Below are positions 29,027 to 40,356 of a DNA stretch of 64,000 bases, piece by piece. Both the position numbers and the translations under genes were made by a program. The stretch's first letter is position 1, and each line of letters starts with the position of its first letter. Below the pieces are notes generated by a model. It made no database searches. It saw only the letters and a program-made list of their open reading frames with translations, and was not told the DNA's origin. The stretch comes from Candidatus Gottesmanbacteria bacterium (GTDB taxonomy: Bacteria > Patescibacteriota > Microgenomatia > UBA10105 > UBA927), in assembly GCA_903821745.1 (NCBI GenBank), contig CAIJMI010000004.1, forward strand, positions 152,404-216,403, given 5' to 3'.

Positions 29027-29034
29027 CATTGAGT

Positions 29035-29050
29035 CCACCATATATAGCGT
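29035..29050 (+). promoter_or_regulatory. Candidate NrdR box (operator)
   Basis: CCACCATATATAGCGT matches 13 of 16 positions of the NrdR-box palindrome acaCwAtATaTwGtgt as I recall it. It lies just downstream of the -10 and upstream of the nrdR start. Confidence 0.45.
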
Positions 29051-29064
29051 TTTGTTTTTCACAT

Positions 29065-29511
29065 ATGAAATGTCCGTATTGCGATTCAAAAGATACTGAA
29101 GTACTTGAGACACGTGATAGCGAAGATCTTACCGTAACCCGTCGTCGTCGTAACTGCCCGAAATGTGAAAAACGGTTCACCACCTATGAACGGGTTGAGC
29201 ACGTTCCAATTACTGTCATTAAAAAAGATAACAGACGGGAAACATTTGACCGGGAAAAGTTAAGTCGCGGTATTTGGCGCGCAAGTGGAAAAACAACACT
29301 GTCAGCTGCCGACGTTGCAAGAGTCGTTGATGAAGTAGAACGGGAAATAATCAGCGGTGATACAAATGAAGTGACAAGTAATACAATAGGAATCCTGGTT
29401 GCAAAACGATTAAAAAAATTAGATAAAATTGCATACATTCGATTTTCGAGCGTATTTAAGCAATTTGTCGATATCGAAGACTTGGCAAAGGAAGTAAAAA
29501 AAATTTCTTAA
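29065..29511 (+). CDS. nrdR: Transcriptional repressor NrdR
   Basis: MKCPYC...CPKC zinc ribbon plus an ATP-cone domain. Start at ATG 29065, not the upstream extension. Confidence 0.9.
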   Translation: MKCPYCDSKDTEVLETRDSEDLTVTRRRRNCPKCEKRFTTYERVEHVPITVIKKDNRRETFDREKLSRGIWRASGKTTLSAADVARVVDEVEREIISGDTNEVTSNTIGILVAKRLKKLDKIAYIRFSSVFKQFVDIEDLAKEVKKIS

Positions 29512-29535: not shown

Positions 29536-31962
29536 ATGGAACTTACTGGTATTCGTAGCAAAGTATTTTTAGATCGCTATGCATTGAAAGACGAAACGGG
29601 AGCTCCTATTGAGAAAACACCGGAAGACATGTGGCACCGCGTTGCTCATGCTGTCGCCAAAATGGAACCAGCAGATCACCGGATGCATTGGGAAGAAAAG
29701 TTCTATGATATCATGCAAGATTTTGTGTTTGTTCCGGGGGGCCGAATTTTATCAGGCGCTGGAACCGGATATAAAGTAACCTTTTATAATTGTTTTGTCA
29801 TTCCCTCACCAAAAGATTCCCGAGGTGGCATTCTCTCAACACTCTCAAACATGGTAGAAATTATGGCCCGTGGTGGAGGCGTTGGTATTAATCTTTCAAC
29901 GCTTCGTCCACGAGGATCGAGAGTGAAGAAAGTCAATGGATTTTCTTCAGGACCGATTAATTGGGCAGAACTGTTTTCTGTTGCAACAAAAGACATTATT
30001 CAACAAGGGGGAACCCGACGAGGAGCACTTATGCTCATGCTTTGGGATTGGCATCCGGATATAGAAGAATTTATAACGGTCAAACAGGACCTTACTAAAA
30101 TTAATGGTGCAAATTTATCCGTCTGTGTGTCTGATGCATTTATGGAAGCAGTTAAAAATGATGCAGATTGGAATTTGATATTTCCGGATACCCAGGACCC
30201 TGATTATGACACAAAATGGGACGGATATATGCCCAACTGGATTGCGCTCGGTAAAACGCCAAAAATTATTAAAACCGTTAAAGCACGGGATTTGTGGGAC
30301 ATGATTGCAAAAGCTGCATGGGCAAGTGCAGAGCCGGGTGTAGTGTTCATGGAACGGTACAACAAACAATTTAATAATTATTATTATGAATTCGTAAACT
30401 GTGTTAATCCGTGCGGCGAAGAAGGATTGCCATATTGGGGAGTTTGTAATCTGTGTTCTATTAATTTGGCAGCGCTTGTCAAAGAAGACGGCACCATGAA
30501 TTATGAACGGCTGGCGGAAGTTGCAAAAATTGGCGTCCGATTTCAGGATAATGTCGTTGATGCCGATGTCTATATTTTTGATGAAATTAAAAAAGTACAG
30601 CTTGAAGGAGAACGTCGTATTGGTCTTGGGACCATGGGACTGGGTGATGCCCTCATTAAGATGAAAATTCGATACGGGTCGAAAGAAAGTTTGGAAGTGA
30701 TCGATAAAATATATAAAACGATTCGCGACGCTGCATATGAATCATCCATTTTGCTCGCAAAAGAAAAAGGGGCATTTCCAAAAATTGATAAAGCAAAGCA
30801 TGTTGTAGGGTATTTCTGTAACCAACTTCCCGAAAACTTAAAAAAGAAAATGAAGAAATATGGGGTAAGAAATTCACTACTGTTGCAGCAAGCTCCAACA
30901 GGTTCAACATCCATGTTATCCGGTGTTTCAAGTGGTATTGAGCCGGTCTATGAGTTTGAATATATGCGGCACGATAGACTTGGTGATCATATTATTCGAC
31001 ATGAACTCTATGATGCATGGTTTGAACAATTTAAAGCAGAAAATGGCAGAGAGCCAACGCGGGAAGATCGACCAGATTATTTTGCATCAGCAAATGATTT
31101 AACGCCGGAAAATCATGTGGAAGTGCAAGCAGCAATTCAAAAATATGTTGACGCGTCCATTAGTAAAACAGTAAATGCGCCAAATGTGCATACGGTTGAA
31201 GATGTAAAACGTATTTATACACTTGCGTATGATCTTGGATGTAAAGGAATTGCCTACATGCGCGAAGGAAGCAGACAAGGAGTGTTAATGCGAAAAGAAG
31301 AGTCAAAAAAGGAAGAGATAAAACAAGAAATAATGAATGCACCAGAGGTCAAACCGCGTCCAGATATCGTGCATGGGTCAACGTACAGAGCGGAGACACC
31401 CGTTGGACAAGCCTATGTGACCGTGAATACCAACGGAGGAAATCAGCCAATAGAAGTCTTTATAAACGTTGGAAAAGCAGGAAGTGATGTGACTGCCATG
31501 GCTGAGGCAATGGGACGGCTTATTTCGTTGACGCTTCGCATGGCCTCACCAATTCCGCCAATTGAACGTGCGCGGAAAGTTGCAGCAGAGCTTATTGGTA
31601 TCGGAGGCGCACGGTCCTTGGGATTTGGTGAAAATCGTGTTCGAAGTCTTCCTGATGCAGTGGCAAAGGTGATCGATCGTCATTTTGGATTTTTTGCAAA
31701 ACACCGACTTGATGCTGCGGCAACAGAACCAGACCGGGTAACGGTGGAAAAAGGAAATGAAACAGATGAAAAGAAAAATGGGGAAGACATTAAGGCACTG
31801 CTTGCAAAAATGGGTGCAACACCAACATCAGCAGTTGCAGTTGCTGAGGAAAAAGAGCATCGGATGGTGACGGTAGATCTGTGTCCAAAATGCGGAGAGG
31901 GAACGCTCGTTTTTGAGGAATCATGTAAAAAATGTTACAACTGCGGATATAGCGAATGTTAA
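29536..31962 (+). CDS. nrdJ: Class II adenosylcobalamin-dependent ribonucleotide reductase
   Basis: Monomeric NrdJ-like active-site and allosteric regions; C-terminal zinc ribbon CPKCGEG...CKKCYNCGYSEC. AGGAGG 8 nt upstream. Confidence 0.9.
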   Translation: MELTGIRSKVFLDRYALKDETGAPIEKTPEDMWHRVAHAVAKMEPADHRMHWEEKFYDIMQDFVFVPGGRILSGAGTGYKVTFYNCFVIPSPKDSRGGILSTLSNMVEIMARGGGVGINLSTLRPRGSRVKKVNGFSSGPINWAELFSVATKDIIQQGGTRRGALMLMLWDWHPDIEEFITVKQDLTKINGANLSVCVSDAFMEAVKNDADWNLIFPDTQDPDYDTKWDGYMPNWIALGKTPKIIKTVKARDLWDMIAKAAWASAEPGVVFMERYNKQFNNYYYEFVNCVNPCGEEGLPYWGVCNLCSINLAALVKEDGTMNYERLAEVAKIGVRFQDNVVDADVYIFDEIKKVQLEGERRIGLGTMGLGDALIKMKIRYGSKESLEVIDKIYKTIRDAAYESSILLAKEKGAFPKIDKAKHVVGYFCNQLPENLKKKMKKYGVRNSLLLQQAPTGSTSMLSGVSSGIEPVYEFEYMRHDRLGDHIIRHELYDAWFEQFKAENGREPTREDRPDYFASANDLTPENHVEVQAAIQKYVDASISKTVNAPNVHTVEDVKRIYTLAYDLGCKGIAYMREGSRQGVLMRKEESKKEEIKQEIMNAPEVKPRPDIVHGSTYRAETPVGQAYVTVNTNGGNQPIEVFINVGKAGSDVTAMAEAMGRLISLTLRMASPIPPIERARKVAAELIGIGGARSLGFGENRVRSLPDAVAKVIDRHFGFFAKHRLDAAATEPDRVTVEKGNETDEKKNGEDIKALLAKMGATPTSAVAVAEEKEHRMVTVDLCPKCGEGTLVFEESCKKCYNCGYSEC

Positions 31963-31965
31963 TCT

Positions 31966-32538
31966 ATGCCAGTGTATACACGAACGGGTGATGATGGAAC
32001 AACTGCACTGTTTGGAGGAAAACGCATCTTAAAATGTGAAGAACTCGTTGATGTGTATGGTTCCATTGATGAACTCAATAGCTGGATCGGCGTTCTTCTT
32101 GCAACAGACAAGAATCAAAGGGACAAGCAATTGTTTCTTGCAATACAACAAGATTTGTTTTTGATCGGCAGTGTACTTGCAGGATGGAAGGGTGATATTT
32201 CTCCACTTGGTAAGCGAATTTTAGAAATGGAACAGCATATCGATGCAATTGAAACAAAAGTGCCGAAAATCACAAATTTTATTCTTCCCGGTGGATCAAA
32301 GAGTGCATCGTATGTTCATGTAGTAAGAAGTATTACTCGACGTGTTGAACGGCAAATGGTTGCATTATTTGCAAAGGAAAAGAGTAGTACAGTACCTGAT
32401 AAAAATAATCAACGAAAAATGATTACGTATATCAATCGTTTGTCTGACTTGTTATTTATGATGGCAAGAGGTATAAATAAGACAGTTGGTATCAAAGAAG
32501 TTGTATGGAAAGGGATATCAACAAAGAGTAAAGAGTAG
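31966..32538 (+). CDS. PduO-type ATP:cob(I)alamin adenosyltransferase
   Basis: MPVYTRTGDDGTT signature N-terminus; 4 nt after the nrdJ stop. Confidence 0.85.
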   Translation: MPVYTRTGDDGTTALFGGKRILKCEELVDVYGSIDELNSWIGVLLATDKNQRDKQLFLAIQQDLFLIGSVLAGWKGDISPLGKRILEMEQHIDAIETKVPKITNFILPGGSKSASYVHVVRSITRRVERQMVALFAKEKSSTVPDKNNQRKMITYINRLSDLLFMMARGINKTVGIKEVVWKGISTKSKE

Positions 32539-32614
32539 AGGAAGGTTGTGTAACTCAATCACTGTGCCGCAACGGTAAAGTCCGGAACTCTTCTTTACCT
32601 ATCCCGAGCAGGAG
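32537..32614 (+). promoter_or_regulatory. Conserved riboswitch-like 5' leader, copy 1 (candidate cobalamin-responsive element)
   Basis: Duplicated about 1 kb downstream. Contains CACUG, a UGCCG-CAA-CGGUA hairpin, AAGUCCGGAA, and an ACUC tract complementary to the GGAG Shine-Dalgarno. Confidence 0.35.
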
Positions 32615-32623
32615 TATTTTTTT

Positions 32624-33061
32624 GTGGAAAGAAACAATATGAAAACAAAAATGAATGCACGAACCATTATTCTTATTATCATGTGTGTCGTGTTGGGTGT
32701 GTTGTTTGTCCGAAATGGACTCGAAGTAAAACGAATACAACAACATCCAATAGAACGGACAACAAACAAACCAGAAGTTGTAGTGACCATCAATAATGGA
32801 GCTTCGCTTATCACGGAAACCATCTCAGCAGGAACACCGTTTGAAGCATTATCCGTTCTCGCAGAAAAAAAACAACTACCATTAACAACAAAACAATATG
32901 ATTTTGGTGTATTTGTCAGTGGTATTGGAGATGTTCTGACTACAAAGGAATTTGGATGGATTTATTATGTGAATAATAAATCAGGTGACGTCGCCGCTGA
33001 TAAATACGAGTTACATAATGGAGATCAAGTTGAATGGAAGTTTGAAAAATCAATTTTTTGA
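32624..33061 (+). CDS. DUF4430 (transcobalamin-like C-terminal domain) membrane-anchored protein
   Basis: N-terminal TM; C-terminal GWIYYVNNKSGDVAADKYELHNGDQVEWKFEK resembles the transcobalamin-like beta-domain. GTG start 12 nt after GGAG. Confidence 0.55.
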   Translation: MERNNMKTKMNARTIILIIMCVVLGVLFVRNGLEVKRIQQHPIERTTNKPEVVVTINNGASLITETISAGTPFEALSVLAEKKQLPLTTKQYDFGVFVSGIGDVLTTKEFGWIYYVNNKSGDVAADKYELHNGDQVEWKFEKSIF

Positions 33062-33582
33062 TACTTATGGAGATGATTACATTTACACTGATTGGTATTC
33101 TTTCAAGACTTGTGCCGCATATTCCAAACATGACTGCAGTGGGAGGTGCATCACTGTTTATGGGTGCAAAATTTGGTGTAAAGAAAAGCATGATCGTACT
33201 TTTTTTAACTATGCTGGCGACTGATAGTGTGAAAGGACTGCATTCTGTGATGTGGGCAACGTACGGATCATTGGTTCTTGCTATTTTGATCGGTAAATAT
33301 ATGGCATCAAAAAAAAATGCAGGGTGGATTATCGGAGGAACGCTGTTGTCTTCTATTTTGTTTTTTATCATTACAAATTTTGCTGTATGGCTTGCCCCGA
33401 ATTTTATGTACGCAAAAACCCTTTCAGGACTTGTGGACTGCTACATGATGGCAGTTCCATTTTTCAAAAATTCTCTCGCTGGCGATTTGATGTATTCAAG
33501 TATTTTTTTTGGTGGATACGCATTCGTTGCATCCATTAAACAAAAGATGATGATGTGTCAGGTCGGCCATAAAAACATATAA
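33058..33582 (+). CDS. Small polytopic membrane protein, ECF S-component/BtuM-like candidate vitamin transporter
   Basis: 174 aa with about six TM helices; 4-nt overlap with the DUF4430 gene. Confidence 0.4.
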   Translation: MILMEMITFTLIGILSRLVPHIPNMTAVGGASLFMGAKFGVKKSMIVLFLTMLATDSVKGLHSVMWATYGSLVLAILIGKYMASKKNAGWIIGGTLLSSILFFIITNFAVWLAPNFMYAKTLSGLVDCYMMAVPFFKNSLAGDLMYSSIFFGGYAFVASIKQKMMMCQVGHKNI

Positions 33583-33586
33583 AGGA

Positions 33587-33666
33587 AGAGGAAGGTTGTG
33601 TAACTCAACCACTGTGCCGCAACGGTAAAGTCCGATACTCCCCTTTATATTTTCCCGAGCAGGAGG
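33587..33666 (+). promoter_or_regulatory. Conserved riboswitch-like 5' leader, copy 2
   Basis: Shares a 22-nt block (1 mismatch), an identical 25-nt block and an identical CCCGAGCAGGAG block with copy 1. GGAGG lies 7 nt before ATG 33673. Confidence 0.35.
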
Positions 33667-33672
33667 TCCATC

Positions 33673-35301
33673 ATGTATTGCGTACCAGAAAAAGAAATTT
33701 CTCTTCTTACCTATAAAGATAAATATTCCACACTTCAAGAGATACATCCTGAATGGACGTCGCATGAACTTCGTTTAACAAGCGCCAGTGAACTCCGCTC
33801 CCAATTTCAGGCTGATCGTGAAACGGCTGCAAGAGAAAATTTAGGGTTGCCGATGATTGAAGTTCCAGAGGCAACATTTACTCTTACTGATGAAGGAACA
33901 GTCTGGTACCCAAACTATGGGAGTGGTGTTGGACTTGTTGAGTTGAGTGAACGACAAAAAAGGTTGCGGCCTGAGCATTATTCACCGGAAGAACACACCA
34001 TTTCATTATTAATAGAAGAACAATTTAAGCATGGAGCAACAGAAGTAGTAACAAGTTATGGAGATAGGGATGTGGTGATTATGAAGTATGATCCAAAAAC
34101 AAAAAAGGGGAAAACGGAGGTTATCAATACCGCGGTTGTAATGGAAAATGAATATAAACCCATGCAAGAATTTATCTCTGAACATTTTCCAAAATTAGAA
34201 TCAGTGCCCGTAACAAAAAGCATTTTTTTGTTTGCCGATAAAAAACTAATTGTTGAACATGCAACGGAAATAGTTCAACAAATGGTAAGAAAATCTGCTC
34301 GTATACATCAACTGCCATATGCTGAAAAAAGACAGAGAATAGCTATCACAGACCAGAAACAGGAATACCCCTATCTTCCGCCATTTATGAGCCATGATAT
34401 TTCTAAGACACATCATGAGGATATGATGCCTGTTGTAGAAACACAGCACTATCAGAGGTTGGATAGCAAACATGTGCAACAGAAAGAACAAACCATAGAA
34501 CGAGTTAAAGACCTCGTTCACAAGGACCAACAGAAGCAACGTATCATATCGTCCATTGAAGTGTCTCAAAAACCGGTGTTGGTGTTTCAATTTTCAAAAA
34601 AAACGGACGAGTATACAAAACAAATAAAACCATCCGTGACGGTCTATATGAGCGACCCAATCGTGGAAAATCAAATCGCGCGCCATATTTTGAAGAATGA
34701 CAAAATTGTTCCGTCGATGCAGCTAAAAGAGAATGATCCGCTGCCTGTGTTTTTGGAGAAGCCAAAACAAAAAGATGAACAAGCAATCACATGGGACAAT
34801 AGAGACCTAAAAGAAACGAAAGAAGAACCACATATAATGGTTGATGCACGTATAAAACAGAATGTTGTCATTGAACAAACGATCGAAGAATATTTTGAAA
34901 CTGGAGATACAAAAGAATCTATCGTGAAAATAGAACCAGCTGTTATTCGTTCTCTGTACGCGCCGTATATGTCTGAAATACCGTTTTTCGTTGATAAAAG
35001 ATCGGGTGTCATATCGGAAATTCAGAAGTTGTGTTGGATTTGTCCGTTAGTAGAGACAATGGATCAGCCTGAAATGTTGGAAGTGGAGATACCGAAAGAT
35101 CAAAATCAACGGTTATATAATTTATTACATTTCCTACAAAAGATTGTAAAAAAACAATTTGGTGAAGATCATATTAGACAGAGAACAATACAGGTCGTGA
35201 ACGCAGATGAATCAGATCGAGTGCGTGATGAAATTACATATTATCTAACACTCTTGGAAGAAAAGAATATGCGAATGCATATGTATGCGTTCGTGAACTG
35301 A
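33673..35301 (+). CDS. Large soluble hypothetical protein (542 aa)
   Basis: No TM and no recognisable motif; charged Lys/Glu/Gln-rich composition. Confidence 0.5.
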   Translation: MYCVPEKEISLLTYKDKYSTLQEIHPEWTSHELRLTSASELRSQFQADRETAARENLGLPMIEVPEATFTLTDEGTVWYPNYGSGVGLVELSERQKRLRPEHYSPEEHTISLLIEEQFKHGATEVVTSYGDRDVVIMKYDPKTKKGKTEVINTAVVMENEYKPMQEFISEHFPKLESVPVTKSIFLFADKKLIVEHATEIVQQMVRKSARIHQLPYAEKRQRIAITDQKQEYPYLPPFMSHDISKTHHEDMMPVVETQHYQRLDSKHVQQKEQTIERVKDLVHKDQQKQRIISSIEVSQKPVLVFQFSKKTDEYTKQIKPSVTVYMSDPIVENQIARHILKNDKIVPSMQLKENDPLPVFLEKPKQKDEQAITWDNRDLKETKEEPHIMVDARIKQNVVIEQTIEEYFETGDTKESIVKIEPAVIRSLYAPYMSEIPFFVDKRSGVISEIQKLCWICPLVETMDQPEMLEVEIPKDQNQRLYNLLHFLQKIVKKQFGEDHIRQRTIQVVNADESDRVRDEITYYLTLLEEKNMRMHMYAFVN

Positions 35302-35313
35302 ACCAGGTGTGAT

Positions 35314-35718
35314 ATGATAAAGCATATGAATACCCTGCCTACTATGGGCACTACTCCCAGTTCTATTTCAACACCTCCGCAGGCAGTTGGAAATATAGGA
35401 AAAGAAACAGAAATACCATCGTCCTCAAGTCAAGAAACGCCGATTCAAGACCTTGGAAAAGAAATGGAATTACCGAAAGAAGTGATGTCCGCAGGAGTAT
35501 CCATGCAGCCAACAATTATTTCTATTCCTCCACCAGTTGTGCAGCTTGGAGTTAAACCAGCTGGACAAAATGCTCCCACTATTTCGACAGGAGCAATTTC
35601 AATGATTCTGACGGATGAACAAATCGCACAAGGACTCCATTCGAGTATCTCAAATTCGATAAGGTGGCTCGCCGAATGGTGTCGCCATAAACTAAAAGTG
35701 CTGCACATTGTACAATAA
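35314..35718 (+). CDS. Pro/Ser/Thr-rich hypothetical protein
   Basis: 134 aa, low complexity. Confidence 0.35.
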   Translation: MIKHMNTLPTMGTTPSSISTPPQAVGNIGKETEIPSSSSQETPIQDLGKEMELPKEVMSAGVSMQPTIISIPPPVVQLGVKPAGQNAPTISTGAISMILTDEQIAQGLHSSISNSIRWLAEWCRHKLKVLHIVQ

Positions 35719-38071
35719 GCATATGTCGACGGAATTGACTGATATTATCGGAAAAGCAGAAGTATTCGGAATGAATGTGCTTCTTCTTGTTTTATTTCTT
35801 GGTGCCTTTTTTGGGCTATGTTACGTTGCATTTCTTTTATGGAAATACCGAAATCGGGAAGCACGGTCGTTGTCATATGTACTGCTGCAAATAGCAGTGC
35901 CACGAGAAAATGAAATTAAAATCGATGCGGCAGAACAAATGTTTTCCAGTTTGTATGGCATATTTAATAATAAATGGTGGGCATTTGTAAAACCGCAGGA
36001 TCATATTTCATTTGAAATTGTGGCAAAACGGGAAGATATCCGTTTTTATGTGTCTGTCCCAAAAAACATAAAAGACCTCGTTGAAAAACAAATCAACGGT
36101 GCATATCCCGGAGCTGATATTAAAGAAGTAGAGGAATACTCTATTTTTTCTGAAAAAGGGAAAGTGTCATTTGCGGCGCTACGGCTTCGTTATGCTAGTC
36201 ATTATCCAATTAGAAACTATCGTGATTTACCAACAGATGCACTTTCGCTTGTGACGTCAGTGCTTGCTAAGATGAGCGAAGGGGAAGGAGCGGTTATCCA
36301 GCTTTTGATTCAGCCGACAGGTGACAAATGGAAACGAGTGGGACGGTCATACATTTCCAAAATAAAGAAAGATGAAGCAAATCCAGAAAAAGCAAATTTT
36401 AAAATTAATCAAAAATCTTTGGAAGCAATTGAAACAAAAATTCAAAAACCTGGATTTAACAGCGTCATCCGTATTGTTGTTTCATCGACAACCAAGGATC
36501 AGGCTGATCAGCATCTAAAAAATATTCTTGCAGCATTCGAACAATTTTCATCAGACAATAATTCATTCTGGGAGATAAAATTTCCAATTAAACATCTATT
36601 TCTTACTGATTTTATATACCGCTATTTTCCAGTTGTGAATTTACCACTTCTCCGACAATTTAGTGTACTAAACAGTGATGAACTGGCAAGTATTTTCCAT
36701 TTACCGAATAAAACAATAGAAACGCCGCACATCTTTTGGTTGAACGCAAAGCGCGCGCCTGCTCCAATGCTCATTCCTGAATCAGGATTATTTTTAGGCA
36801 TGTCAAAATACCGTGGTGTGGAGCGTCCGATTTTTATCGGAGATGATGACAGACGGCGTCACATGTATGTCATTGGAAAAACCGGTACAGGAAAGTCGCA
36901 ACTTCTGGAAGAAATGGTCATGCAGGATATTAATGCAGGAAAGGGGGTTGCTGTTATTGATCCCCACGGAGATTTGATTTCAGGAATTTTGAATCGTATG
37001 CCAGTTTCGAGAGCTGAAGATGTAATTGTGTTTGATCCTTCTGATACTGAGAGACCGATGGGACTGAATATGCTTGAGGCAAAAACAGAGGAACAAAAAC
37101 ATTTTGTTGTCACATCAATCGTCGGCCTTATGTATAAATTGTACGACCCAATGAAAACAGGAATTATCGGTCCTCGGTTTGAACATGCAATTAGAAATGC
37201 CATGCTTACTGTCATGGCAGAGCCTGGAAATACGTTTGTTGAAGTGGTTCGTGTATTAACAGATCCTGCATTTGTGCAAGAGTTATTGCCGAAAGTTAAT
37301 GACCCAATGATTAGACGGTATTGGACAGATCAAATTGCTCAAACTGCCGACTTTCATAAGTCAGAAGTTTTGGATTATATCGTTTCAAAATTCGGTCGGT
37401 TTGTTACAAATAAATTAATGCGGAATATCATTGGGCAATCCGTGTCTTCATTTGATTTTAGAAAAGTGATGGATGAAGGAAAAATTCTTCTGGTGAATTT
37501 GGCAAAAGGAAAACTTGGAGAAGAAAACAGTAACTTTTTGGGATTGATTCTCGTTCCCCGTATTCTTGTTGCCGCAATGAGCAGACAGGAAATGCCAGAA
37601 GAAGACCGGCGGGATTTTTATCTTTATGTCGACGAGTTTCAAAACTTTGCAACTCCAGACTTTGCGCAGATTCTTTCCGAGGCTCGGAAGTACAGACTCA
37701 ATTTAACCGTTGCCAACCAATTTATTGGTCAAATGGAAGAGGAAGTGAAGAATGCAGTATTCGGGAACGTCGGTACGCTAATTTCATTCCGTGTTGGTGT
37801 GACGGATGCAAACTATTTGCAGCATGAATATCAACCGACGTTTAACGAATCAGATCTTATCAATATTGATAAATACAATTCGTATGTAAAAACAATTGTG
37901 AAGAATGAACCAATGAAACCATTTTCCATTGATTTAACGAAAGATATGAATCAAATTGTTCAAGCAAGAAATCCTCAAATTGCAAAAGCAATCATTCAAC
38001 TGTCACGGTTAAAATATGGAAGAAGCAAAGAGTTGGTAGAGGCGGAAATTTCACAGCGCGCGAGATTGTAA
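35708..38071 (+). CDS. Membrane-anchored P-loop ATPase of the VirB4/VirD4/TraG/HerA (FtsK-HerA) superfamily
   Basis: N-terminal TM helix. Walker A IGKTGTGKSQ about 380 aa in, Walker B LYVDEFQNF, and an ARKYRLNLTVANQ arginine-finger region as in VirB4/TraC-type ATPases. Confidence 0.7.
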   Translation: MYNKHMSTELTDIIGKAEVFGMNVLLLVLFLGAFFGLCYVAFLLWKYRNREARSLSYVLLQIAVPRENEIKIDAAEQMFSSLYGIFNNKWWAFVKPQDHISFEIVAKREDIRFYVSVPKNIKDLVEKQINGAYPGADIKEVEEYSIFSEKGKVSFAALRLRYASHYPIRNYRDLPTDALSLVTSVLAKMSEGEGAVIQLLIQPTGDKWKRVGRSYISKIKKDEANPEKANFKINQKSLEAIETKIQKPGFNSVIRIVVSSTTKDQADQHLKNILAAFEQFSSDNNSFWEIKFPIKHLFLTDFIYRYFPVVNLPLLRQFSVLNSDELASIFHLPNKTIETPHIFWLNAKRAPAPMLIPESGLFLGMSKYRGVERPIFIGDDDRRRHMYVIGKTGTGKSQLLEEMVMQDINAGKGVAVIDPHGDLISGILNRMPVSRAEDVIVFDPSDTERPMGLNMLEAKTEEQKHFVVTSIVGLMYKLYDPMKTGIIGPRFEHAIRNAMLTVMAEPGNTFVEVVRVLTDPAFVQELLPKVNDPMIRRYWTDQIAQTADFHKSEVLDYIVSKFGRFVTNKLMRNIIGQSVSSFDFRKVMDEGKILLVNLAKGKLGEENSNFLGLILVPRILVAAMSRQEMPEEDRRDFYLYVDEFQNFATPDFAQILSEARKYRLNLTVANQFIGQMEEEVKNAVFGNVGTLISFRVGVTDANYLQHEYQPTFNESDLINIDKYNSYVKTIVKNEPMKPFSIDLTKDMNQIVQARNPQIAKAIIQLSRLKYGRSKELVEAEISQRARL

Positions 38072-38132
38072 AAAATACCCTCTTTACATTCTTTATAATT
38101 GCTATACACTCTTGAAGTATTGACAAAAAAGT

Positions 38133-39539
38133 ATGGACCAACAAGAAGAACCTTCCTGCACTACCGCGATTGTTAAACGTCACGAAAAAGTCGTCTACAT
38201 TTTTAATCTTTCAGAAGATGTTTGGCCTTTTATTAAGGCAATGTCTGATCCGCATGAGCGGCAATTTGAAATTGATTGGAATGCAAATCTTGCTGAACGT
38301 GATCTTCTTTCAATTGCTGAAGAAAATGAAGCAATATTTATCAGTCCTCATCCAATCAAAGATTCTTTTCTTTCATATTACCAACAGGTATTTGGTACAA
38401 AACATATTCAAATTTTGGTTCCAAAAACACACACCGGTGAAATTTGTGAAGACATTATCAATGATAATGATCTCGTTGAGGAACTAATTAAAGCAGCAAA
38501 TTCAGTTAAAAAATTAACACTCATCAGCTATTCAACGAGTCCGCAATTTCTACATCTTGTTTCAAAACTTCAAAAAAAAGGAATTACTGTGTATACCCCA
38601 GAATCTCCTGAAGTTCCAAGTGCATGGACCGTTAATTTCTATGGGAGCAAATCTGGTATCAGGCAGCTTGCACAAAAAAGCGGTGCCATAGAGCCGGATT
38701 TTAAAATAGCGGATGGTCTTATTTGTTCTTCTATCTATGATGCGGCAATGATTGCTGCACATAAGTATATAAAAGAAGGCGGTGTCGTTATTAAAACGAA
38801 TAAAGGACATTCCGGTGCAGGAGTACTTTTGTTACGTCCAGGAGATCTTCCGAATGAATATGATGCATGTGAAAAAGCAATTCATACAATGTTGAAAAAA
38901 GATAAATATTGGGAAGAATTTCCTATCGTTATCGAAGATCTGTTAAATGTAAATCCTGCAGTTGGTGGAGGATTTCCGGATGTTGAATTTAAAATTCAAA
39001 AATCAGGAAAAATTGAACTCTTATACTACTGCGCAATGCGGGTGGACAGAAGCGGGATCTATAAAGGACAGGAAATGCATGAATCAGTTCTTCCAGAACG
39101 GTTAGCCGCACGAATTGTTGATACAGGATTTTTTATTGGTGAGCAATATGCTGCTGCAGGATATCGGGGATATTTTGACGTTGATTTTGTTGCAGCAAAA
39201 AATGGAGAAATTTATGTAACAGAATCCAATGCTCGTCGAACAGGAGGAACCCACGTCTATAAAACTGCGATGAATCTTATTGGCAAAGAGTTTATGACTG
39301 ATTCCTATACACTTTCCAATAACGATTATTCCTTACCGAAAGGAAAAAAACCTTCTCTTGAGGAAGTGATACAGGTATTAACGCCAGTTCTGTTTGATAA
39401 AAAAACAAAAGAGGGTGTTGTCCTTGCGTCATCCAATTTACTTGAACAAGGGAAATTTGCATATATCATTTTTGGTAAAAATGAAAAACGCTCGCTCGAA
39501 ATAGAAGCAGAAATGGAAAAACTTCTTTTGAAGCTTTAG
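38133..39539 (+). CDS. ATP-grasp fold enzyme, unknown substrate
   Basis: KTNKGHSGAGV and ESNARRTGGTH ATP-grasp motifs. Confidence 0.55.
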   Translation: MDQQEEPSCTTAIVKRHEKVVYIFNLSEDVWPFIKAMSDPHERQFEIDWNANLAERDLLSIAEENEAIFISPHPIKDSFLSYYQQVFGTKHIQILVPKTHTGEICEDIINDNDLVEELIKAANSVKKLTLISYSTSPQFLHLVSKLQKKGITVYTPESPEVPSAWTVNFYGSKSGIRQLAQKSGAIEPDFKIADGLICSSIYDAAMIAAHKYIKEGGVVIKTNKGHSGAGVLLLRPGDLPNEYDACEKAIHTMLKKDKYWEEFPIVIEDLLNVNPAVGGGFPDVEFKIQKSGKIELLYYCAMRVDRSGIYKGQEMHESVLPERLAARIVDTGFFIGEQYAAAGYRGYFDVDFVAAKNGEIYVTESNARRTGGTHVYKTAMNLIGKEFMTDSYTLSNNDYSLPKGKKPSLEEVIQVLTPVLFDKKTKEGVVLASSNLLEQGKFAYIIFGKNEKRSLEIEAEMEKLLLKL

Positions 39540-39553
39540 TAATTTCCGTACTA

Positions 39554-40276
39554 TTGACTACCATTTGTGAAGATTGTTATCATGTAAGCATGTCTAGGCT
39601 ATCTGATCATGAAAAAGCGTTAGACTTACGTCGTAAAGGAAAAAGTTATTCGCAAATAAAGGAAACCTTGGGAATAAGTAAAAGCACTCTAAGTGATTGG
39701 TTACGTAATTATCCTCTGTCTAAAGAGCAAATGTATCTCCTTACAGGGAAAAGTGAGCAAAAAATTGAGCGATATAGGGAAACTCGATTACGAATAAAAA
39801 ATGAAAAATTTTCTATTGTGGTTGAGAATGAAAAGCATAAAATATTGCCAATTTCATTAAAAGAAATATTTATGGCTGGATTATTTCTTTATTGGGGGGA
39901 GGGCACGAAAGGGTCAAATTGCACTGTTAGTGTAAGCAATACAGATTATAGAGTAATAGATTATTTTGTTCATTGGCTAGAGGTTTGTTTTTTAGTGCCA
40001 AGAAAAAAAATAAAAATTAGTTTGCAACTATATAGCGATATGAATATAAATAGTGCAATAAATTTTTGGAAAAAGACATTACATATGTCATCGAAACAAT
40101 TTATAAAACCATATATTAAAAAGAGTATACAAAAGACAATAAATCAAAAAAATGGATATGGTCACGGAACATGTCAGGCATACATATATGACGTGAAGAT
40201 AAAAACACGGATAATGGCAGGATTTGAGGTCATATATAAAGAACTAGAAGAATATAAGAAGAAAACATATAATTAG
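39554..40276 (+). CDS. HTH domain protein with a single LAGLIDADG-like motif (candidate homing-endonuclease-like protein)
   Basis: N-terminal resolvase-like HTH (KSYSQIKETLGISKSTLSDWL); central MAGLFLYWGEGTKGS matches the LAGLIDADG motif. Confidence 0.45.
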   Translation: MTTICEDCYHVSMSRLSDHEKALDLRRKGKSYSQIKETLGISKSTLSDWLRNYPLSKEQMYLLTGKSEQKIERYRETRLRIKNEKFSIVVENEKHKILPISLKEIFMAGLFLYWGEGTKGSNCTVSVSNTDYRVIDYFVHWLEVCFLVPRKKIKISLQLYSDMNINSAINFWKKTLHMSSKQFIKPYIKKSIQKTINQKNGYGHGTCQAYIYDVKIKTRIMAGFEVIYKELEEYKKKTYN

Positions 40277-40284
40277 CAAGTAGA

Positions 40285-40356
40285 GCGCCCGTAGCTCAGC
40301 GGTAGAGCGCATGTCTTATAAACATGAGGTACTTGGATCGTCACCAAGCGGGCGCA
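40285..40356 (+). tRNA. tRNA-Ile (anticodon UAU), 72 nt, no encoded CCA
   Basis: Manual cloverleaf: acceptor GCGCCCG/CGGGCGC, D-arm GCTC-AGCGGTA-GAGC, anticodon stem CATGT/ACATG, loop CTTATAA, T-arm CTTGG-ATCGTCA-CCAAG, discriminator A. Confidence 0.8.

Follow-up and report, generated by a model that had tools for sequence, protein, structure and literature searches.

We analysed a 64,000-nt stretch of a Candidatus Gottesmanbacteria genome (contig CAIJMI010000004.1; GC content 38.5%; hereafter the window), in which two short leader RNAs, copy 1 and copy 2, lie within a run of genes on the forward strand. An earlier reading of this sequence, made without database searches (the original prediction), had taken the leaders for riboswitches bracketing a B12-uptake gene pair next to a B12-dependent ribonucleotide reductase operon. 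Upstream of copy 1 are nrdR (29029-29511; Pfam Zn_ribbon_NrdR and ATP-cone), encoding the transcriptional repressor of ribonucleotide reductase genes; nrdJ (29536-31962; TIGR02504 NrdJ_Z, 568.6 bits against a cut-off of 400; Pfam Ribonuc_red_lgC and TSCPD), encoding an adenosylcobalamin (AdoCbl)-dependent class II ribonucleotide reductase; and a gene for a PduO-type cobalamin adenosyltransferase (31966-32538; PF01923, TIGR00636). Copy 1 is followed by the genes of a DUF4430 protein (32624-33061) and a DUF6580 membrane protein (33058-33582), and copy 2 by an uncharacterised block that begins with the gene of a 542-aa protein (33673-35301). Pfam and NCBIfam agree with the NrdR, NrdJ, PduO and DUF4430 assignments made earlier, and the placing of copy 1 before the DUF4430/membrane protein pair and of copy 2 before an uncharacterised block also stands. 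NrdJ and PduO need B12; NrdJ, which makes DNA precursors, is the single B12-dependent enzyme identified among the annotated genes. The gene set around the riboswitches is confirmed as a B12 regulon.

Two leaders of the AdoCbl-II family

Pairwise alignment of 32500-32660 with 33545-33700 confirmed that the leaders are near-identical. They have in common a 49-nt core, AGAGGAAGGTTGTGTAACTCAA(T/C)CACTGTGCCGCAACGGTAAAGTCCG, with one mismatch; 16-17 nt 3' of this core, the CCCGAGCAGGAG block is the same in both. A 25-mer present in both is found at 32560-32584 and at 33610-33634, on the forward strand each time, and nowhere else in the window even when three mismatches are allowed; its expected count in 100 shuffles was none. 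The extents given originally (32537-32614 and 33587-33666) fell on real leaders and left out the 5' strand of the closing helix, P1. Rfam matches and folds place the full elements at 32528-32614 (copy 1) and 33577-33666 (copy 2).

The whole window was scanned against Rfam 15 at gathering thresholds, which returned three matches: a tRNA (40285-40356) and two to RF01689, AdoCbl-II, of clan CL00101. Both leaders exceeded the gathering score of this family (36.5 bits) over its full model (positions 1-81), copy 1 with 39.0 bits (E = 9.5e-6, 32528-32598) and copy 2 with 42.6 bits (E = 7.6e-7, 33569-33648). No unrelated Rfam family competed, and a permissive scan of 32400-33800 added only noise and left the scores unchanged. 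The original prediction, which had called for this comparison, offered a compact cobalamin-riboswitch variant or a different RNA class. The former proved correct, RF01689 being class II and formerly named AdoCbl-variant; the latter was abandoned, as short length is a defining trait of class II.

The aptamer of copy 1 spans 32528-32598, with P1 at 32528-32534/32592-32598, P3 at 32537-32540/32588-32591 and P4/L4 at 32544-32560, followed by P5, L5 and P6. The Rfam alignment and folds give P4/L4 as GGUUG-UGUAACU-CAAUC, P5/L5 as UGU-GCC-GCA and P6/L6 as CGG-UAAAGU-CCG, and the minimum free energy (MFE) fold returned the same P1, P3 and P4 as RF01689. In copy 2 (aptamer 33577-33650), RF01689 and the MFE fold place P1 at 33577-33585/33642-33650, P3 at 33588-33590/33638-33640 and P4/L4 at 33594-33610, with the register of P1 backed by the alignment of orthologues. 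Resemblances to the cobalamin-riboswitch core noticed earlier could be assigned in two cases: GGUUGUGUAACUC is P4/L4, and AAGUCCG fits the conserved AGUCcG of the model. CACUG, proposed as the core of the B12 box, is presumably not that box, judged by its consensus.

Both copies form the family's four-way junction, with P1/P3 closure, P4 capped by the 7-nt T-loop L4, a short P5, and P6. The peripheral P6 extension that marks class I is absent from both, and L6 reads UAAAGU in both, one nucleotide shorter than the RF01689 consensus. With 2-3 nt between P1 and P3, and six model positions deleted in copy 1, the env8-type J1/3 T-loop, which docks on J6/3, is absent. This does not exclude class-II membership, since some Cbl-II members are known without J1/3 (PMC6158498). 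Between the copies, P1 differs by compensatory changes (G-C to A-U and A-U to G-C) and P4 by a G-U to G-C change.

In each aptamer the 5' strand of P1 (32528-32538 in copy 1, 33577-33585 in copy 2) runs into, or right up to, the stop codon of the gene upstream: the PduO TAG (32536-32538) lies between P1 and P3 of copy 1, and the DUF6580 TAA (33580-33582) falls within the 5' strand of P1 in copy 2. The riboswitches may sit within a polycistronic mRNA. A terminator scan gave nothing informative near either copy.

The L5-L13 kissing loop and its natural covariation

The CCCGAGCAGGAG block is a P13 hairpin with the loop L13 (CGAGCA), which starts 2-5 nt past P1 of an aptamer of about 70 nt. P13/L13 of copy 1 (32602-32614) has the stem UCC/GGA (32602-32604/32611-32613) and its loop at 32605-32610; that of copy 2 (33652-33666) has the stem UUCC/GGAG (33652-33655/33662-33665) and its loop at 33656-33661. 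In both copies L5 (32565-32569 and 33615-33619) reads UGCCG and is complementary to L13, with five Watson-Crick pairs around one bulged A (A32607 and A33658). The pairs are G32569-C32605, C32568-G32606, C32567-G32608, G32566-C32609 and U32565-A32610 in copy 1, and G33619-C33656, C33618-G33657, C33617-G33659, G33616-C33660 and U33615-A33661 in copy 2. The 3' strand of P13 is GGAG(G) in both, present as an SD (Shine-Dalgarno)-like GGAG at 32611-32614 in copy 1 and as the SD GGAGG at 33662-33666 in copy 2, 6 nt before the ATG at 33673.

Both copies thus pair L5 with a downstream loop that keeps unpaired nucleotides, as a kissing loop of this kind should (PMC5028336). In env8HyCbl the L5-L13 kissing loop is cobalamin-dependent, needs L13 to be carried on a stem-loop, has unpaired nucleotides and holds the ribosome-binding site (RBS; PMC5028336). 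The class-II riboswitches env8HyCbl and env8Cbl-IIa, from a marine metagenome and studied by crystal structure and reporter work (PMC5028336, PMC6158498), have the same aptamer architecture as the window copies, without the P6 extension. They also resemble them in an L13 on a short P13 stem a few nucleotides past P1, in an RBS within P13/L13, and in translational control, which for the window is predicted. The J1/3 T-loop is present in env8 and absent in the window copies, whose L5 is one nucleotide shorter. Where the env8 kissing loop consists of four pairs, an A-G pair and two bulged purines, that of the window has five Watson-Crick pairs and one bulged A. The window copies have their SD in the P13 3' strand and env8 has it in the loop, and the linker is shorter in the window. 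Registers in the env8 style, tried by hand with CAGG or GGAG against L5, did not fit; the register CG(A)GCA:UGCCG emerged from cross-genome comparison. In the eut system, the cobalamin riboswitch of Enterococcus faecalis works in trans. The window elements differ from it as cis-acting leaders with P13/SD platforms, and are like it in having a compact aptamer with no identifiable J1/3 (PMC6158498).

Relatives were collected by scanning one genome per GTDB species with the pattern CACTG-N5-9-AACGGTAA-N0-1-AGTCCG. This gave at least 119 loci, about two thirds of which have an adjoining P4 hairpin and are real aptamers; the remaining third or so are chance matches in coding sequence, such as the recurrent CACTGGTTCCAACGGTAATAGTCCG, and were removed by demanding the P4 hairpin. 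Of the loci listed, those with real aptamers belong to Patescibacteria (Saccharibacteria, Paceibacteria, Gottesmanbacteria, Microgenomates and others), Bacteriovoracaceae, the SUP05/Thioglobus group, Anaerolineae and further groups. One coding motif that the pattern matches repeatedly, CACTG(G/T)T(T/C)CCAACGGTAATAGTCCG, lies inside a conserved proteobacterial gene (loci L004, L006, L028, L044, L075, L078, L092, L103, L112 and L117 of our collection); it is not a riboswitch and is a source of false positives for pattern scans.

Covariation across related leaders, which had been proposed as a check, was found both in the helices and in the L5-L13 interaction. P4 showed five pair types at two positions (62 sequences). 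RNAalifold, run on an ungapped alignment of the 62 sequences, recovered P4 and P6 alone, since P1 and P3 vary in register, and cognate and non-cognate flanks were compared instead. Cognate P1/P3 flanks paired with a mean of -10.0 kcal/mol, against -6.0 kcal/mol for non-cognate ones (Mann-Whitney p = 7e-15).

The L5 class covaries with a hairpin loop 10-50 nt past the aptamer (about 75 aptamers from many phyla). In a strict motif table, L5 UGCCG went with L13 CG.GCA in 27/27 cases, UCCCG with CG.GG(A/U) in 12/12, CCCUCG with CGA.GGG in 13/13 and UCGCG with CGCG(0-2 nt)A in 18/23, and the off-diagonal cells held 0-4 loci. A rarer L5, UACCG, pairs with CG(G/A)GUA (L003 and L012). Around L13, the P13 stem has at least three consecutive pairs in 29 of 30 distinct sequences and itself covaries, with the types UCC/GGA, UUC/GAA, UCU/AGA, UGA/UCG and CUU/AAG.

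We estimate the probability that both elements are class-II cobalamin riboswitches of minimal form, with an L5-L13 kissing-loop platform, at about 85%. Modelled on env8HyCbl, a bound corrinoid would stabilise the L5-L13 kissing loop, which would lock P13 and with it the SD, GGAG(G), in its 3' strand. Translation initiation would then drop when B12 is plentiful. Copy 2 would in this way repress the 542-aa gene and probably the genes downstream of it, through coupling or polarity. We infer from this model the binding of a corrinoid, the identity of the ligand (AdoCbl as against methylcobalamin, MeCbl, or hydroxocobalamin, HyCbl) and the sign and magnitude of regulation.

Loci L021, L031, L105, L071, L094 and L111 carry an intrinsic terminator after P13/L13, its 5' strand complementary to L13/P13 (for example GAGCAGA and UCUGCUU). 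This suggests that one and the same kissing loop works through transcription termination in those loci and through SD occlusion in the window.

Gene neighbourhood, orthologous loci and competing readings

The protein encoded after copy 1 has an N-terminal hydrophobic membrane anchor and a transcobalamin-C-terminal-like domain (PF14478, residues 88-142, E = 1.1e-13, 51.9 bits against a gathering score of 23.8); its start is GTG 32624 or ATG 32639. DUF4430 is the C-terminal domain of transcobalamins (PMC4350170). The membrane protein that follows (PF20221, E = 2.7e-40) had been called BtuM-like, a label that we drop: the PDB matches up to E = 10, by sequence or by profile, contain no BtuM chain. 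As a single sequence it found no solved relative among PDB matches, and a profile of 10 homologues matched 6FNP_A, of the ECF (energy-coupling factor)-CbrT entry, weakly (E = 2.1e-4, 24 bits, profile positions 5-113). We assume that the chain matched, which is 182 aa long and labelled 'Membrane protein', is CbrT. The DUF6580 protein is thus a candidate corrinoid S-component of CbrT-like type. Coordinate comparison placed DUF6580 homologues downstream, on the same strand, in seven other loci with AdoCbl-II-type aptamers. ECF components are not among the 25 families listed in the Pfam overview of window genes, in which an ECF module was not specifically sought. A literature search on DUF6580, or on cobalamin riboswitches in Patescibacteria or the candidate phyla radiation (CPR), found nothing relevant.

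In Lactobacillus delbrueckii, CbrT is encoded in an nrdJ-cbrS-cbrT-pduO cluster (PMC5997447; PDB 6FNP). This is the closest described analogue of the window, with NrdJ, PduO and a small polytopic membrane protein together in a B12 auxotroph. It differs in that the similarity to CbrT is weak and confined to the N-terminal two thirds, and in that the partner in the window is a DUF4430 protein. A riboswitch for the Lactobacillus cluster is not mentioned in PMC5997447. Both DUF6580 and the 542-aa family, tagged by riboswitches, are candidates for B12 biology in the ultra-small, B12-auxotrophic Patescibacteria.

Eight close relatives of the 542-aa protein led to orthologous contigs in metagenome-assembled genomes (MAGs) of Candidatus Gottesmanbacteria and Microgenomates. 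Their gene order is NrdR, NrdJ, PduO, copy 1, DUF4430, DUF6580, copy 2, the 542-aa homologue, a 130-aa protein, a DUF8128 ATPase and an ATP-grasp protein. In a further Gottesmanbacteria locus of our collection (L060), NrdJ is 74% identical to that of the window. The signature after AGUCCG is GAAC in copy-1 orthologues and AUAC in copy-2 orthologues, and their P1 helices are also distinct. These lineage-specific signatures, kept across genomes, suggest that the duplication is old and that both copies have been maintained.

The platform of copy 2, UUCCCGAGCAGGAGG-N5-6-AUG, is kept in four Gottesmanbacteria/Microgenomates genomes. Its orthologues have a simple hairpin inserted in L6, and that of L124 has another in L4. 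Because of these insertions Rfam labels orthologous elements RF00174 or RF01482, or misses them, and assigns the window copies to RF01689; the copy-2 orthologues of L121, L122 and L125 go to class-I models. The hairpin-inserted riboswitches lie at 5878-5988 in L121, 4722-4990 and 5875-5989 in L122, 4672-4915 and 5835-6000 in L124, and 5876-6008 in L125. Class I (RF00174 Cobalamin and RF01482 AdoCbl) shares with the window copies the clan CL00101, the four-way-junction core and the L5-L13 regulatory principle, and differs from them in the P6 extension, which the window copies, assigned to RF01689, lack. The class-I-labelled orthologues differ from the window copies only by the hairpin in L6 and, in some, that in L4. 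By sequence comparison, window copy 2 is the stripped form of the orthologous riboswitch, and it is a well-supported predicted translational switch, conserved in orthologues.

Copy 1 has diverged in its output. In its orthologues in L122, L124 and L125, P13 ends in GGAA. Next comes an intrinsic terminator, CCUUCUCGG...CGAGAAGGUUUUUU, with complementarity between its 5' strand and CCCGAG of P13, a terminator/antiterminator design. L121 (4384-5359) has no copy 1, and its pduO and DUF4430 genes overlap; this suggests that in this locus nrdJ, pduO and the uptake pair share a transcript. Orthologous B12 riboswitches of a single lineage would thus gain or lose peripheral hairpins and exchange terminators for SD platforms. 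Such turnover implies that class labels and output modes are evolutionarily labile.

In the original prediction the SD was sequestered by an ACUC(U/C) tract (32587-32591 and 33637-33641) pairing with GGAG. ACUCU and ACUCC are indeed complementary to GGAG(G) in both copies, and the 3' part folded alone pairs them weakly (-4 kcal/mol, not better than in shuffles). Both the Rfam alignment and the full-length MFE folds, however, make the tract the 3' strand of P3, paired with 5' AGAG/GAG, and its complementarity to the SD follows from the purine-rich P3 5' strand (AGAG/GAGG). Anti-SD pairing would compete with aptamer folding, so the SD would be sequestered without ligand, the wrong sign for an uptake gene, and it offers no explanation for the invariant CGAGCA loop or for the covariation of that loop with L5. 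We consider this platform unlikely, and the kissing-loop model, backed by natural covariation, replaces it. A generic intergenic repeat, similar to repetitive extragenic palindromes (REP) or miniature inverted-repeat transposable elements (MITE), or a recent local duplication without a sensing role, would account for two near-identical cores 1 kb apart. The original prediction had named scattering of the element through the genome as evidence for such a repeat, but there are just two copies in 64 kb, the same fold recurs with compensatory changes in at least four phylum-level groups, and copy-1 and copy-2 orthologues hold their own signatures across genomes; we give this reading next to no credence. 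The missing J1/3 and the short L6 could also point to a class-II-like fold that senses a ligand other than a corrinoid. This is very improbable, given that every nameable linked gene (those for NrdJ, PduO, the DUF4430 protein and the CbrT-like protein) is B12-related and that Cbl-II members without J1/3 exist (PMC6158498).

A more serious alternative concerns copy 1, in which the aptamer would be intact while loss of the terminator had removed or weakened its output, leaving the DUF4430 and DUF6580 genes constitutive or mildly regulated from ATG 32639. Relative to the orthologues, with terminators after P13 in L122, L124 and L125, the window has lost about 50 nt that held the terminator hairpin (32614-32624 compared with L125 4860-4930) and holds only a U7 tract (32617-32623), a terminator remnant directly 3' of P13. 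The orthologous DUF4430 proteins begin at the equivalent of ATG 32639 (MK.K.NART), and L121 shows that the uptake pair can do without copy 1. Against such decoupling, the aptamer scores above threshold, its helices are compensated and L13 is intact. The change from GGAA to GGAG also creates an SD 9 nt before the in-frame GTG 32624, which looks like conversion to translational control. We regard decoupling as doubtful though a real possibility, and leave it uncertain whether copy 1 has been converted to translational control from GTG 32624 through P13/SD or regulates weakly and is partly decoupled.

Several observations weigh against class-II switches acting through the kissing loop. For copy 1, besides the terminator deletion, the start conserved in orthologues (ATG 32639) comes with a separate GGAAAG, about 12 nt past P13, and the start in actual use may therefore escape occlusion by P13. 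P13 has just 3-4 bp, and the J1/13 linker measures 2-5 nt as against 7 nt in env8, where regulation hinged on linker length (PMC5028336). In env8-type members J1/3 is a selectivity determinant (PMC6158498), and with its absence here the form of the ligand is not predictable. A promoter scan found no sigma-70-like promoter upstream of either copy, and the overlap of P1 with stop codons means that terminating ribosomes could perturb folding. RNAduplex energies of L5 with downstream sequence did not discriminate between L5 classes, nor did a loose motif test allowing any 1-2 nt bulge. These two tests failed because the L5 types are short and alike, and the strict contingency table was used in their place. 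Ligand binding and an effect on expression are, for both RNAs, predictions from sequence.

The protein family behind copy 2

As RNAs the two leaders add little, being textbook class-II cobalamin switches of a known family. Of most interest after the analysis is the Patescibacteria protein family, as yet uncharacterised, that copy 2 tags. The 542-aa protein, the predicted direct target of this riboswitch, has two conserved domains, one N-terminal (about 200 aa) and one C-terminal (about 70 aa), with a disordered K/E/Q-rich middle between them. Pfam, NCBIfam, PADLOC and PHROGs gave no match to it. When 1.84 billion representatives were searched with a profile, a family of 127 clusters at 50% identity emerged; the matches listed are mostly 500-800 aa in length, some being shorter fragments, and the majority align through the N-terminal domain. 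None of 74 scanned members had a meaningful Pfam domain. AlphaFold2 modelled the full-length protein poorly (8 sequences; predicted local distance difference test score, pLDDT, 53) and the N-terminal domain well (75 sequences; pLDDT 94.6), and for the modelled domain no fold match or sequence relative was detected.

A cobalamin riboswitch lies directly upstream of the family gene in all 12 loci examined, which comprised the window, four MAG loci with synteny, the pair L071 and L094, and five distant members taken from the match list (named loci of the family are the window, L071, L094, L121, L122 and L124-L131). Ten have a cobalamin-clan Rfam match above threshold directly upstream; in the other two, L124 (two insertions) and L094 (cut by the contig end), the riboswitch was recognised by alignment. 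The family gene often adjoins pduO or nrdJ, and stands beside pduO in L126 and L130. This association makes a B12-related role of the family likely. At the contig end of L094 (5023-5047), GTTCAGACGTGTGCTCTTCCGATCT lies upstream of the aptamer and cuts the P1 5' strand in the public MAG contig. It is presumably an Illumina adapter, that is, an assembly artefact.

Co-directional genes separated by small gaps follow at 35314-39539 on the forward strand and are probably in one operon with the gene of the 542-aa protein. Their products are a 134-aa protein, a 787-aa HerA/FtsK/VirD4-like ATPase and a 468-aa pre-ATP-grasp protein. The ATPase (35708-38071) is DUF8128 in the Logan annotation and matches phrog_5156, a phage family of unknown function (E = 2e-94), and PADLOC mad8 (E = 1e-16). 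Synteny of this block is kept in L121, L122, L124, L125 and L130, the last of which has the order small protein, DUF8128 ATPase and a 464-aa gene.

We lean, by a little, towards the view that the gene following copy 2 is the founding member of a new B12-linked system in Patescibacteria, accompanied by a conserved small partner and often a HerA/FtsK/VirD4-like ATPase and an ATP-grasp protein. If so, the cassette could be a new machine for corrinoid acquisition or salvage. Alternatively, it could provide a B12-sparing route used when NrdJ cannot work, for example the scavenging of DNA or deoxynucleotides by the DNA-translocase-like ATPase. At the end of the block after copy 2, directly before a tRNA, lies the gene of a 240-aa helix-turn-helix protein whose PHROG matches, invertase- or transposase-like, are weak (39554-40356 together; tRNA at 40285-40356).

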